From assembly GCA_951406725.2 (NCBI GenBank), contig OX597826.1, positions 3,534,001 through 3,598,000 of the forward strand: a stretch of 64,000 nt of DNA, in the 5' to 3' direction. This document shows positions 9,461 to 43,335 of the stretch, in pieces. Position 1 is the stretch's first letter; every line of letters begins with the position of its first letter. The position numbers were made by a program, and so were the translations under genes. The notes under the pieces are model-generated. The model made no database searches. It saw only the letters and a list, made by a program, of their open reading frames with translations, and was not told the origin of the DNA. Origin of the DNA: Octopus vulgaris (lineage: Eukaryota).

Positions 9461-9882
9461 TTTATTTGTTTCAGTCATTTGGCTGGAACACCGCTTTTAG
9501 TAGAACGAATCGACCCCAGGACCTATTCTTCGTAAGCATAGTACTTATTTTGTCGGACTCTTCAGCCGAACTGCGAAGTTACGGGGACGTAAACAAACTA
9601 AAATTGGTTGTCAAGCGATGGGTAGCAGGGCACAAATACAGACACCCAAACGCACACACATATGCAAAACCCAAAAACTGAACAAGAATGTAACGGACGA
9701 CAATGAAAATATACGGATATTACAAAAACAGACAGGAAAACCAGAACGAAATATTTTTTCTATTCATCAGTCAATCTTCCAATAATCATTACAGTTTCGG
9801 CCTGTTAAACTTGACACTGTTATATATATATACAATGGGACTGAACCCGGAACCATGTGGTTGGTAAGGAAGCTACTTACCA
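9461..9882 (-). mobile_element. SINE family A, fragmented, with unrelated sequence (~9670-9820) in its internal microsatellite
   Basis: Tail half at 9461-9660 and head piece at 9837-9882 match the full copy at 14592-15049. Confidence 0.75.
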
Positions 9883-9912
9883 AAGGGCAACTGTATATAT
9901 ATATATATATTA

Positions 9913-9948
<36 letters not shown>

Positions 9949-10004
9949 ATATATATATCTATATATATATGTATGTATACACACATACATACATTTAAAT
10001 TGGG

Positions 10005-10260
10005 TACAACTGTTCCGTTGTTGCCTTTATTGAAGTCATAAAGCAAAATGTGCCGAATATGCTCCTTTGTCACTTCCATTATAACTTTGAAAAAATAACT
10101 TATAAAATGGAATTGCACTCTTCAAAACTTGCACTAAGAATAAGTACATGGTAAAATTAAGACCTGCTTTCAAAGCAAGTTGATGCAGGTAGTTAGTCGT
10201 CCCCGCCTATTTTAGTTCATGCAATTGAAAAAACCGCATTATTTATGGGATGACCCAATA
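10005..10260 (-). mobile_element. mariner 5' end (TIR plus start of transposase)
   Basis: TIR ttgggtcatcccataaataatgcggttttt with flanking TA (minus strand from ~10260); ORF start 'MEVTKEHIRHILLYDFNKGNN' is typical of a mariner transposase HTH. Confidence 0.85.
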
Positions 10261-37744: not shown

Positions 37745-38285
37745 ATTGGCTTCAGATTTTGGAACAAAGCGAGCAATTCTAGGGGAGGGGTAAGTCGATT
37801 ACTTACTAGTTCTTATTGTATCGGTCCTGAAAGGATGAAAGGTAAATTCGACTCCGGCTGCATTTGAACCCAGAACTTAAAGACAGACGAAATCTCGCTC
37901 AGCATTTTGCACGCCAAGGTATCGATTTTATCAACGCTCTTCCTTTAGTTAGTTTCTAATATTAGCATTAAATTCAAATTCCGCCGAAGTCAACTTTGCC
38001 TTTCATCCTTCCAGAGTCGACAAAATAATTAACTCAGCCACTTCATAGAAACTGCTGGCCTTGTGCCAAAATTAGAAACTAATATTAGCTTTAAATTTTG
38101 ACACAAGGCCAACAATTTCGGGAGAGAGAATAAGTCGATTACATTGATTTCAGTGCTCAACTTATACTTAATTATATCGACACCGAAAGGATGAAAGGAA
38201 AAATGGACCCCGGCGGCAGACGGACAAACTACTGCTAAGCTTCTTAGCGGACGAGCTAACGATTACCCCAGTTCGCCGTCTTCGC
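37745..38285. mobile_element. Cluster of three family B2 SINE pieces in alternating orientation
   Basis: Minus 37745-37940, plus 37970-38085, minus 38090-38285. Confidence 0.75.
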
Positions 38286-39880
38286 TAATTTCTAACATTG
38301 ATAGAATATAACATGAAAATCCAATATTTAAAACAGACATCCACTCAACATTTTTACATTTCCAATTATGCAAATGAATACAATAAAATTTTACTGAAAA
38401 ATCATATATTAAAATTCGTTTCAAACATGCATTTTGTACTATTGTAAAATTGTCCAAAAAAAATGGAACGAAAGCTAACAAAGATAAAGTCAAGTATGGA
38501 ACTGAAGTCAATATAAGTATTTGTTTTCTCTTTCAATATTGTGTTTAAAACGAATCGTATTTGTCTTTGCAATTTAATATTTTATAGTCAAAACATTTCA
38601 ATTACACCTACTCCGAAAGAAATGTTCGTGATTACATTTATAAAATATTTCTTGCTTAGAAAGGCACCATCTAATGCGAAGCATTTGCGGTTGCAACGAG
38701 AACATACGGTATTAGCATCATCATACAGACCTAAATAAAATAGTTGTGATGGAATTAAAGCATTTACTTCAATAGATCAATAAATTTCAAATTACAGCCT
38801 TCAAATTCATCCGAAAACTTTCGTCTTGACTAATTTAAATATCATTGATGTCTAACTAGGAACACTGGTCGATATTACGAATTATGTTTGAGAAATAAAT
38901 AATACCTGTCAGGATTTGAACACAGAACATAAAGAAACAAAAGTGATAACAGACATTACTAAGGGTTTTTGATTGTTCAGCCATATTTCCATTCCACCTG
39001 CATCAGCGATATTAATAGCAGCCGTAGTTTTACTCAAAATCAAAAGCATAAATATTTCCATAAATTGTTAAATAAAGTATTAAGTATTAATACTTAATAA
39101 AGTATAAAGTATTTACAATAGCCTATTTTTGGTAATAGTTTTAATCGATAAACATGTAATCCTATCAGCTTAAGAATATTCGTCTTATCACTCCGTTCTT
39201 CAAAGAACCCTTACATCTATCAACATCAAAGAGCTAATTTAGTATACAAACGGTGCGAGGAAATAACTTATCTAAGTAAATATTTAATAGCCCATTGTGT
39301 AGGGAAATGTTTCTATTTTGAATAAGGCATTTCTTAAATAAGACCTATAATTGCATTTCTTATGGATGTGTGCTCTGCTTGTAGATCATTAATTTTGAAA
39401 GCGTACACTCCATGACTTGGCAATATTGTTGACCTAAATAACGTGTAAGTTATATAATTGTAGATATTTAGCTTGTATTTAATCAGTAAGAATGCAATGC
39501 AACTGGTTAGATATTGCAACGTTAAAGGCTTTGCAGTAATTACTTTTGTTCGTAATAGATCTTACTTTAAATACCACGGGTGTTTATTCTAAATTTTGTC
39601 CATCTCATGATTGTTAGAATAAGTGCCTTCATAATTGTTATTCTTTGCGCTTAATGAAAATATCGTTCATATAGATATAACATATAAATTGTTAATATAT
39701 TATACAAGAGATATATGCAAAAGTGCGTTAGTGGAATCATTAAGGCATCGGTAAAATTATTTGAGCTGAGTGTTCCCGTTCATTGTATCTGAGTTCAAAT
39801 CCCACCGATGCTTTTCAAAATCCCATTCATGCTTTTCAAAACACACACTTTGCTCATTCATATATAGGCCAACAGGTGTA

Positions 39881-39944
39881 GGAGTCTGATGATACGCCAT
39901 AAACGTAAACTCTTTATGGACGGGAAACCCAGGGTAATCCCATA
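39881..39944 (+). ncRNA. Type I hammerhead ribozyme motif, catalytic core intact
   Basis: ggagt | CTGATGA (39886-92) | helix II ccataaa/tttatgg | GAAA (39924-27) cccaggg TA (39935-36) | atccc; outer ggcca/tggcc stem; TA-repeat flanks. Confidence 0.75.
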
Positions 39945-39966
39945 AACTGGCCTTATATATATATGT

Positions 39967-40000
<34 letters not shown>

Positions 40001-40560
40001 AGACTTAGAACTTTCAAAACAAGAGAAAAAGAAACCATGATGGTCGTGTGGTGGACGTTTGTTCTCAGCCCTCTTGATTACTGTTCGCAAATATGGTCAC
40101 CAAACCGTGTAAAAGTAACAACGGAACTCGAGGCGATCCACCGAAGCTATAGAAAGGATATTGACACAATGTAACATATCAACTACTGAGAGAGAGAGAG
40201 CTGTAGAGTTAAGACACTACACTCTGGAGCGAAGGCGGGAAAGATATGTATTAATATATATCTGGAAAATACTCGATTTAAAATCAGGAACCGCAACAGC
40301 TTGAGTTTCAAAAGCCCACAGCTCGTCAACATCCTCCCACAAAGCCTGAGAAATCTGTTGTGTTGTGGATGTAAGCTTTTTCAAATCAGACCTGGATGTC
40401 CTTCTGTCGAGTGTTCTGGATGAACCTACTTCAAGGCAAGAAACACAGATGAGAGCAGCAATGTCAAACACGCTCATCAACCAAATGTCACACATGAGAG
40501 GAAGTTAAGTGGAAGTATAGCAAAGTAAACGGCGGTGACCCGACATGGTCTCAGTCCTTG
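40001..40560 (+). mobile_element. CR1/L2-group LINE 3' fragment (RT C-terminal domain)
   Basis: 'LRTFKTREKETMM...LDYCSQIWSP...LEAIHR...YTLERRRERYVLIYIWKIL...ILPQSLRNL...FFKSDLDVLLSSVLDEP'. Confidence 0.85.
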
Positions 40561-40678
40561 GGCGTTTGAATTCAGAATTTGTATTGAGTAGATAGAAGTT
40601 GACACATTATTCTTGCCCGACGGGACACATGTTAAGCCGCAAGGTACGTTTTTGTACTAATTTCCATATACAGGGAAT

Positions 40679-40740
40679 GTTCTCCTGACGAGAAGAATGG
40701 ATCAAATTTTGGTGCCTAATTCGAAATTGCAATAGAGGGC
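40679..40740 (+). ncRNA. Type I hammerhead ribozyme motif, catalytic core intact
   Basis: gttctc | CTGACGA (40685-91) | helix II gaa...ttc with inner ggatcaa/ttggtgcc | GAAA (40723-26) ttgcaa TA (40733-34) | gagggc; 6-bp helix I including two G-U pairs. Confidence 0.8.
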
Positions 40741-40937
40741 TAACCATTTATTTAAGTTAAATTTTGAATTTTTATATCATGTCGCTCTACGACAGCTTTT
40801 GTGGTTGAGGAGATATAATATGAGTGGTTATAGTGGCTTCATAGCGGTTTTAAGTACCATTTTGAGGCATGTAAGTTTTTTTATAACCCTCCCAGTTATA
40901 ATTGTGAGTTATTCCCAATTATACGTTGTTTTTATAT

Positions 40938-41056
<119 letters not shown>

Positions 41057-42110
41057 CCTGCGCGTATTATGTATCTATATATATACAAACAAAAGGTTGG
41101 AAAAACAAACGAAAAGGGCACTAAAAAAATCAGTTGGAGTTACAGGATAGGATTACCAGCCACAGAGAATGACCCCCACAAATTTTTATATTCCCTGGAA
41201 ACCCTTAATTTCGTCTCCATATACGAGGTATGCACACAAATAAATTCATTTGAAACGCACGCCAGCACACACAAGCACACGCTCTCCCTCTAACGCATTC
41301 GCAGCCGTAAATTCATTGGCTGTCCCTACATACCTTATCATTAATGTACAAATAGTTTTAGCGACCGATTATCATCTTCGTACAGAGACAGATAGTGACT
41401 AAATAAATATAAAAGATTATATCTTGTCGAAAATGCTAAAATGCATACAATCTGAGATTACAGAGTAGAATATCAGCAGGCATTAATGTTTTACTAAAAT
41501 GCATACAATCAAATTTGTTCTGCCACTGTGCAATGTTCCACAACGTACCACCGGGTGTTTTGTGACGAAACCATACAAATGTGTACCTAGGATGCTGAGT
41601 AAGTGTGCATGAGAACACTGAACAGTCTTAAAAGGAAAAGAACGAAAGAGAAACTTAAGAGCAAGTACAGACTCTTTGTTGACACAGCCAAACTCAAATG
41701 CTACAACATGTCATCCAAATATCTGTTGCAAGATCACCAAGAAGGAATACCTGATGCGGTTCCTCTTCTTGCTGTGCACGTAACACTTGTTCAGTTTGGA
41801 GTTCTGCGATGAGAGGTACGAAACAAAATATTATAAATATTAACATTGCTAGTACGTTACTTCATGTATAATTTTGATGGTTTCATTGGGATATTCGCCC
41901 AGCAATATATGCTTCTAATTAGTTGCCAGTTATTATTTGCCCATAGTTATTTTTTCCTTACTATTATTTGGTTAGTTACTCTTCACAACTTCTTATTGAT
42001 TTCATTGAAATTATAGGAACCTGTTCTTTAATTTCACTGTAATCCGCACATGTCAATATATTCCTGTGCTTCTATTGTACCGAACGTATAGTTCGGTCTG
42101 GTTAGATGTA

Positions 42111-42677
42111 TTGGGTTGTCCGGAAAGTTCGTGCCGATTTTTAGAGGAAAGAAAAAGGTCAATAAATACATGCCATTACATTTTTTAATCAACCAAATAT
42201 GAACCATTTTGTTGCACAATGCGTCTCCATCTTTCGTTTAACTTGAAAATACTCTCTTCCTAAAATTGAGGTAGTTTCATGCCAAAGAATTCATCAAGGT
42301 ATCTTTTTACGTCATCCAAGGAATTGCAATTTTTAGCATTAAGATTATTCTGCAGAGACCTGAGTATGTGGAAATCCGAAGGAGCAATATCTGGTAAATA
42401 TGGAGAGTGGGATAACACATCCCAGCCGAGCTGCAGCAATTTTTCTCTGGTTCCCAGAGCGTCAAGTGCCGAAAAGGAACTTTTTTATCTTCTATGTTAA
42501 AGGGTTACATAATTGACGCAGATTATAGGAACATACACTTTCTTCCACGAAAAGACAGCTTAAACTGTGCTCTAAATGAATGTGTTGTCAAATCCTACTT
42601 TAAGGACTTAACCATGTTCTAAAATAACTCGAAAGTTAAGCTACTATAAATCGGCACGAACTTTCCGAAGAACCCAA
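42111..42677 (-). mobile_element. Internally deleted mariner with both TIRs and TA TSD
   Basis: TIRs ttgggttgtccggaaagttcgtgccgattt / aaatcggcacgaactttccgaagaacccaa; minus translation 'LLQLGWDVLSHSPYLPDIAPSDFHILRSLQN' (YSPDLAPSD motif). Confidence 0.93.
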
Positions 42678-43335
42678 TAATATTTTTACCGTCGATTTTC
42701 AACATGGGAATACTTGCCTGTAATTGTTTGCGCTCAATAGCCTTTGTTTACTTGTATTATATTGTTTCACAGGGATTACTATTTTCCAATTATTGTTCCC
42801 TTCAGACTGTAATATGTGAAATATGAGAAAGTCAGAGATAACGTCTGCTTACAATAGAAACAAGTGAATACTGTATTTTATAAAATGACTGGGCTTCTCA
42901 GAACATTACATCTCACCTAAAATTCGTTGGATATTCTTGAATAGTTATTGAATGACAAATGTATATCGAGACTAACAAGTATGTATTTACACATATATAC
43001 AATTATGCATTCAGGCCTAAATAGTTCCGTGGATTCTTGTGTCAGAATTTGCATTTAAACCGAACTCCCATGCGTAACTCTCTCTAACGCATTTGTTTAA
43101 AGCAAAATCAACATCTGTCTACCTTTATACAAGTAAGCTCATACAGTGGTGAAGCATTGCCAGCAAATAGCATTACAATAATTCACGGATAAATATGTGT
43201 CTGTATGTTTGTATTATATATATATATGTGTGTATGCAATTAAACATATGTTCAACTATACATGTATCCATGTATATACACACACATATTCATATTTCTA
43301 CAGAAATACACATGCATGGTAACACATACCTATCA

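Follow-up and report, generated by a model that had tools for sequence, protein, structure and literature searches.

A solo hammerhead of the Penelope type, probably a worn terminal-repeat tip, between TA repeats of octopus DNA

We analysed 64,000 nucleotides of Octopus vulgaris DNA (contig OX597826.1, positions 3,534,001 to 3,598,000), called the window below, with positions numbered from its first letter. A short unit between TA repeats carries a hammerhead motif that is real and of the type found in Penelope-like elements (PLEs). Our preferred reading, held with moderate confidence, is that the unit is what remains of a PLE terminal repeat, a solo tip at a (TA)n target that has likely decayed. 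The tip might instead come from a retrozyme derived from a PLE; taken jointly, the two sources are likely. Judged by its sequence, the unit is a PLE dimer type in design, yet it lacks the 10.1-11.1 pair of that type, and nothing seen here places it in a named PLE family. The lack of this pair suggests that it is likely a relic of the PLE type rather than an intact member.

A type I hammerhead between TA repeats

A preliminary description of this locus named CUGAUGA, helix II, GAAA, stem III, helix I, and a distal stem, and all were present on the plus strand where it had placed them (Table 1). It also proposed a hammerhead, which is of type I, with cleavage 3' of A39936, and this is supported by the anatomy of the motif and by simulation. 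However, the cassette was said to be 100 nt long, and the part that is not TA repeat measures 87 to 88 nt (39866/7-39953). It is TA bounded on both sides, but unevenly, with ATATATA on the 5' side versus a run of 22.5 units on the 3' side. Of all window positions, 1.4% have a long TA run no more than 20 nt downstream. Any TA target duplication would be illegible inside the flanking repeats.

Table 1. Positions of features in the unit and downstream of it
Feature	Position	Strand	Remarks
5' TA flank, ATATATA	39860-39866		Short; this 7-mer was seen 102 times in 58,931 non-microsatellite bases
5' terminal AGGCCA	39866-39871	+	Arm of the distal stem, an inverted end, or one of the two copies of a duplicated GGCC target
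GGUGUA	39875-39880	+	Partner of UACGCC (39893-39898) in the minimum-energy fold; blocks helix II
Helix I, 5' strand, GGAGU	39881-39885	+	U-A, G·U, A×C, G-C, G-C
Core box C3-A9, CUGAUGA	39886-39892	+	
Extra base U39893, irregular helix II base, helix II, and loop II	39893-39923	+	
Helix II, CCATAAA/TTTATGG	39897-39903/39913-39919	+	7 of 7 pairs Watson-Crick
Loop II, CGUAAACUC		+	9 nt; closes helix II
GAAA box (G12-A13-A14-A15.1)	39924-39927	+	
Stem III, ACCCAGGGU	39927-39935	+	Near-palindromic; A-U, C-G, C-G closed by CAG
GUA site	U16.1 = 39935, A17 = 39936	+	Predicted cut 39936/39937
Helix I, 3' strand, AUCCC, then internal-loop strand and terminal TGGCCT	39937-39953	+	Internal-loop strand is the second copy of CCATAAAC
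(TA)n microsatellite	39954-39998		22.5 units; likely insertion target
Broken 3' fragment of a probable LINE	39999-40565	+	Seen in translation; stops and frameshifts; starts at the TA run; outside the unit
Second PLE-type hammerhead	40679-40740	+	About 800 nt downstream of the unit; from the relaxed scan

The type I core is present, with CUGANGA and GAAA boxes, the A15.1-U16.1 pair, and H17. The core had been called intact. This holds for the invariant single-stranded bases but not for the conserved 10.1-11.1 pair: A39894 faces G39923 as a mismatch if U39893 is the extra base, and otherwise U39893 wobbles with G39923 and an A is bulged. A39920 is also bulged at the helix II base, and helix II consists of 7 bp plus 2 proximal pairs. 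Helix I had been described as imperfect. Its two strands are there, but beside the core they form a wobble and a mismatch, with 4 of 5 positions pairing (one as G·U) and a predicted probability of 0.000.

Two features had gone unnamed, the missing 10.1-11.1 pair and the palindromic character of stem III. In that stem 8 of 9 positions are self-complementary, with a self-duplex of -11.6 kcal/mol against +0.4 kcal/mol for the isolated hairpin. This palindrome points to the PLE dimer type. The consensus for PLE hammerheads is CUGANGA, H, helix II, GAAAN, a palindrome, and NUH (PMC4209133 Fig. S3), and five traits define them: one base after A9 is unpaired, helix II is long, helix I is short, G10.1 pairs with C11.1, and helix III is palindromic (PMC4209133). 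Four of these five traits are seen in the unit, and G10.1-C11.1 is the exception. By our own count of the PLE alignment in PMC4209133, the extra base is H in 54 of 56 rows, which U39893 matches, and positions 10.1 and 11.1 are paired in all 56 (43 G-C, 8 G·U, 3 A-U, and 2 U-A). In the Hydra Poseidon row of that alignment, stem III has a comparable 7-nt insert and the site is GUA, as in the unit.

An arrangement of hammerhead-like words by chance is extremely improbable. The window does hold 24 CTGANGA boxes, 14 of them on the plus strand, and Rfam gave no support. In 231 Mb simulated from an order-4 Markov model, trained on the microsatellite-masked window, descriptors written after the motif was seen matched 0 times (strict), 6 times (medium; 0.003 per 64-kb window), and 87 times (relaxed; 0.048 per window). 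Prokaryotic genomes gave 23 matches to the same two boxes versus 28 expected by chance; no hammerhead helices were found among the 23, and helix II exceeded 4 bp in none of them. The absence of strict matches in the simulation and of long helices II among the prokaryotic matches therefore makes a chance origin very unlikely. Rfam at the gathering score gave 0 matches over the 64 kb, and at E up to 10 the sequence around the unit gave 27 and 3 subthreshold matches, none of them a hammerhead. A hammerhead on the minus strand of the locus was rejected because that strand has no CUGANGA there.

Predicted folding and the inverted ends

The predicted ground state is not a hammerhead (-27.4 kcal/mol, z = -1.84, with 9 of 200 shuffles folding as well). 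In it, GGUGUA pairs with UACGCC and the core is looped out. In these energies, which omit tertiary contacts and protein help and have no active-hammerhead control, the active monomer fold exceeds the ensemble by 8.8 kcal/mol (P is about 6e-7 for the unit of 100 nt and ranges from 4e-7 to 5e-6 across five other context lengths), and the active tandem dimer lies 14.6 kcal/mol above the best dimer fold. Among 168 single changes in helix regions the median gap was 9.2, and it fell to 3.7 only for two changes at the helix I mismatch. Folding the unit as a circle left the off state unchanged. The unit is predicted to self-cleave poorly, and only as a pair.

Two further pairings, at 39897-39910 and 39940-39947, could compete for TTTATGG. 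CCATAAAC occurs twice in the unit, which offers one rival partner. ATAAAC/GTAAAC resembles a local duplication into loop II and offers a second.

The missing 10.1-11.1 pair, the folding gaps, and the helix I mismatch are likely signs of decay. Decay is something we infer, because the gap was computed without an active-hammerhead control and the second hammerhead, described below, also has a gap.

Loop contacts go with a loop II that has a purine first and A last, and CGUAAACUC departs from this pattern. The preliminary description had suggested that an extended helix I with an internal loop could provide a loop I/II tertiary contact. Helix II of 7 bp with an irregular base, and a proximal helix I that is predicted not to form, argue against this. 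Canonical loop contacts occur where helix I has 6 bp and helix II has 4 (PMC4209133), and PLE hammerheads are usually without loop I/II contacts (PMC6155905). The contact is not supported; a novel one could lie beyond what modelling captures.

The wider view of that description, an active stand-alone monomeric hammerhead in which the internal loop of an extended helix I docks on loop II, is distinctly unlikely. The invariant bases are intact, GUA works as a site in natural hammerheads (PMC1636495), an extended helix I can be drawn under constraint, and nearest-neighbour energies ignore tertiary contacts. However, positions 10.1 and 11.1 are unpaired, the pairs beside the core include the wobble and the mismatch, proximal helix I has the negligible probability given above, and Rfam has no match. 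Also, the canonical geometry has no room for so long a helix II, and a single Schistosoma PLE-type motif did not cleave when tested (both PMC4209133).

The distal stem had been drawn as tataggcca/tggccttata. Its TA pairs are trivial, but the 6-bp AGGCCA/TGGCCT is informative and gives the unit inverted ends. Inverted GC-containing ends of at least 5 nt were found in 1 of 89 TA-to-TA intervals (40 to 400 nt), namely this unit. The pairs between 39866-39871 and 39948-39953 have probabilities of 0.53 to 1.0 (0.85 to 1.0 for five of the six), which makes the distal stem the best-supported helix of the unit. GGCC, itself a palindrome, stands at both ends (39867-70 and 39949-52), and the 3' end is 17 nt past the predicted cut site. 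Three readings agree with these ends: an inverted PLE end of very small size, a closing stem conserved in a self-contained unit, or a palindromic GGCC target that was duplicated. A classical MITE was rejected: terminal inverted repeats of MITEs are about 10 bp or more, and here they are only 6 bp.

That insertion itself gave rise to the distal stem, through a 4-bp GGCC duplication in a TATA-GGCC-TATA-like site around a shorter insert (about 39871-39948), is highly unlikely. GGCC does stand at both ends, a duplicated palindrome in a TA context mimics an inverted repeat, and plant LTR retrozymes have flanking 4-bp duplications (bioRxiv 10.64898/2026.07.22.740005). However, no other TA-GGCC junction was found at long TA runs in the window, the duplications of animal retrozymes are said to exceed 4 bp (PMC7229834), and the extra A-U pair would go unexplained.

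The ends could also mark a complete mini-retrozyme, a fixed 87-nt unit with pairing ends that is copied whole into TA repeats by PLE enzymes. We hold this to be a possible but doubtful reading. Its route would possibly run through a circle of about 90 to 100 nt in which the competing fold holds the ribozyme off. The ends do close an extended helix I, no other of the 89 intervals has such ends, and both the strength of the distal stem and the persistence of the off state in the circular fold agree with it. Retrozyme units of 51 to 972 bp and dispersed monomers have been reported, and an origin of retrozymes from PLE terminal repeats has been argued (bioRxiv 10.64898/2026.07.22.740005). Against it, BLAST of the 64-kb window for a paralogue or tandem copy gave the self match alone, the defects of helices I and II suit decay better than design, and 6 bp centred on a palindrome is thin evidence. 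The described invertebrate retrozymes are tandem repeats of about 170 to 400 nt, and those of corals have canonical hammerheads (PMC7229834). A self-contained "cassette," as the preliminary description put it, is possible, but the window holds no paralogue of it. The fuller claim, that there is a family of 87-nt mobile units with one hammerhead each, self-pairing fixed ends, and an aim for TA microsatellites, moved by Penelope enzymes, passing through a circle of less than 100 nt, and held uncut by a built-in competing helix until two copies pair, we regard as rather unlikely.

Neighbouring sequence and the search for copies

The relaxed scan also found a second PLE-type hammerhead downstream. 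It has CUGACGA at 40685-91, G12 at 40723, a perfect palindrome (AUUGCAAU), and a predicted cut 3' of A40734, with a possible G-C pair at the helix II base. In Rfam it scored 18.3 bits for Hammerhead_1 (E 0.035 in 131 nt), under the cut-off of 34, and its dimer gap is 7.4 to 8.2 kcal/mol. The two hammerheads have no common sequence and are separated by a TA run and by what is probably a LINE fragment. Their stem IIIs are not complementary, so that a heterodimer is unlikely, and together with the lack of common sequence this makes it likely that they are separate insertions. A second such motif 800 nt away suggests that relics of this type recur here. The second motif may be part of a fragment at 40566-40935, about 370 bp long, with a TA/CA microsatellite at its end.

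Intron-like signals stand ahead of helix I of the second hammerhead (GTACGT at 40644, CTAAT at 40657, and CAG/G at 40671, within 40644-40674 on the plus strand). The candidate intron would be very short (31 nt). These signals are reminiscent of Drosophila Penelope, in which an intron ends at helix I (PMC4209133).

The LINE fragment between the two hammerheads has what we take to be CR1/L2-like motifs. It had no match in Pfam, and a homologue search with the LINE-like frames found nothing. In Atlas it fell with unnamed eukaryotic clusters (0.93) and with ALKBH8_N (16% of members; 0.85).

A scan of the window that allowed one core mismatch gave the unit and a weak candidate at 9770 on the minus strand, with CTGATGA and GTAA for GAAA, which is probably chance. 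The open minus-strand frame of the unit gave 3 matches among 1.84 billion proteins. These were rejected as paralogues, being translations of short tandem repeats with scores summed over 6 to 49 stretches; the two closest have Y-Q or N-Q where the core box requires H-Q. A word-based protein search for paralogues gave no candidate. Three of four short motifs had no match in the PLE consensus sequences of the PMC8557442 supplement. The fourth, CCCAGGGT, had 4 matches there and was also rejected, the flanking motif being absent in the 2 displayed. Among the matches listed in searches of the octopus and cephalopod hammerhead literature, no title or abstract described such an element. A sigma-70 promoter scan found nothing and is irrelevant to animal DNA.

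The window is animal repeat DNA, with SINEs that seem similar to those of Octopus. It is AT-rich (GC 0.31 to 0.41) and dense in microsatellites (119 tandem-repeat rows), and no recognisable intact gene was found in the 64 kb. Pfam searches of 300 of the 302 non-repetitive ORFs of at least 55 aa gave 8 weak matches, every one below the cut-off. They included a reverse transcriptase remnant at 2097-2315 on the minus strand (RVT_1, E 3e-5) and a Mos1-type (mariner) HTH remnant at 9876-10121 on the minus strand (HTH_48, E 9e-5). The single RT match lies about 37 kb from the unit, and no PLE RT or GIY-YIG remnant was found among these ORFs.

Other repeats were also seen in the window. Inverted repeats of 29 bp (42109-42137 and 42651-42679, 93% identical) enclose about 570 bp, and 42109-42679 is likely a deleted mariner-type DNA transposon. 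There is a perfect 22-bp palindrome at 39078-39099 and an imperfect 72-bp hairpin at 38048-38119. A SINE-head-like box, TCTGAGTTCAAATCC, lies within 39788-39841 on the plus strand, with weak E-values at 6 other sites in the window, and is followed by a 21-bp tandem duplication (39797-39841).

Proposed origin and comparison with known systems

If the unit is a PLE tip, then the endonuclease of its parent would have nicked AT-rich DNA and its reverse transcriptase would have copied the RNA. The copy spans the cut site, so the template would have been uncut or re-ligated. Synthesis would have ended after about 90 nt, and this 5' truncation would have left the tip alone. In the transcript of the parent, two hammerheads would pair via stem III and cleave after GUA, probably aided by the protein of the element. 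The lone copy, with no partner nearby and with a competing fold, would show little or no cleavage.

Several reports are consistent with these steps. EN+ PLEs insert preferentially into microsatellites, are frequently truncated at the 5' end, and often carry an inverted piece there (PMC8557442). A PLE of Anolis nicks AT-rich DNA, uses uncut RNA, and requires its protein for hammerhead cleavage (PMC11167929). Most PLE-type motifs occur singly, probably as remnants of truncated PLEs (PMC4209133), and the dimer design of hammerheads with a palindromic stem III has been summarised (PMC6765202). In cephalopods, 235 Hammerhead_1 loci are annotated in the giant squid (PMC6962438), and Octopus vulgaris has 30 recently active Penelope families (PMC13282606).

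Other observations count against a PLE tip. Rfam has no hammerhead match, and no parent element, paralogue, or PLE ORF was found in the window. The link to PLEs is drawn from anatomy and context, since no RT or GIY-YIG remnant of one was found there either. Random 5' truncation is unlikely to end just where 6 bp complement the 3' end, as the 1 in 89 intervals indicates. Also, the Anolis element starts reverse transcription about 85 to 90 nt past the cut site (PMC11167929), versus the 17 nt of the unit.

A lone Penelope-type hammerhead relic is ordinary and matters little; PLE-type hammerheads number thousands per genome in other animals (PMC4209133). It does illustrate that Rfam overlooks motifs of this kind and that an unrelated pair of them can occur inside 900 bp. 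Should paralogues have the same two ends, the unit would rank among the smallest mobile elements that bear a ribozyme and would offer a simple means of studying the role of PLE hammerheads. Their function has been called unclear (PMC8557442), and hammerhead cleavage is dispensable for insertion in vitro (PMC11167929). An 87-nt family would amount to a minimal ribozyme retroelement that resembles a MITE and is scattered in a cephalopod genome instead of being arrayed in tandem.

The unit shares its type I topology with the hammerheads of PLE terminal repeats (PMC4209133), which are mostly single dispersed motifs. In both, A9 is followed by an extra base, helix II is long and helix I short, and the palindrome of stem III implies cleavage as a dimer. 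Unlike those hammerheads, the unit is without the 10.1-11.1 pair and an attached PLE ORF, and it has 6-bp inverted ends. Animal non-LTR retrozymes share with it a short non-coding sequence and a type I hammerhead, and their dispersed monomers are known (PMC7229834; bioRxiv 10.64898/2026.07.22.740005). However, the unit is single in the window, is shorter than 170 to 400 nt, and departs from the canonical helix lengths and loop contact, with a helix II of at least 7 bp and a 9-nt loop. Of nine retrozyme dimers tested in the bioRxiv study, one cleaved. With the Schistosoma-type Hammerhead_1 of Rfam (RF00163) it shares the core boxes, the U16.1-H17 site, and the three-way junction, but it has a longer helix II and a weaker helix I and gives no match to that model at E up to 10. 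Octopus Naiad PLEs share its preference for (TA)n insertion (PMC8557442 supplement). They are described as being without canonical hammerheads, unlike the unit (PMC8557442), and are therefore unlikely parents. The parent would more likely belong to a Penelope/Poseidon, Neptune, Nematis, or Hydra family.
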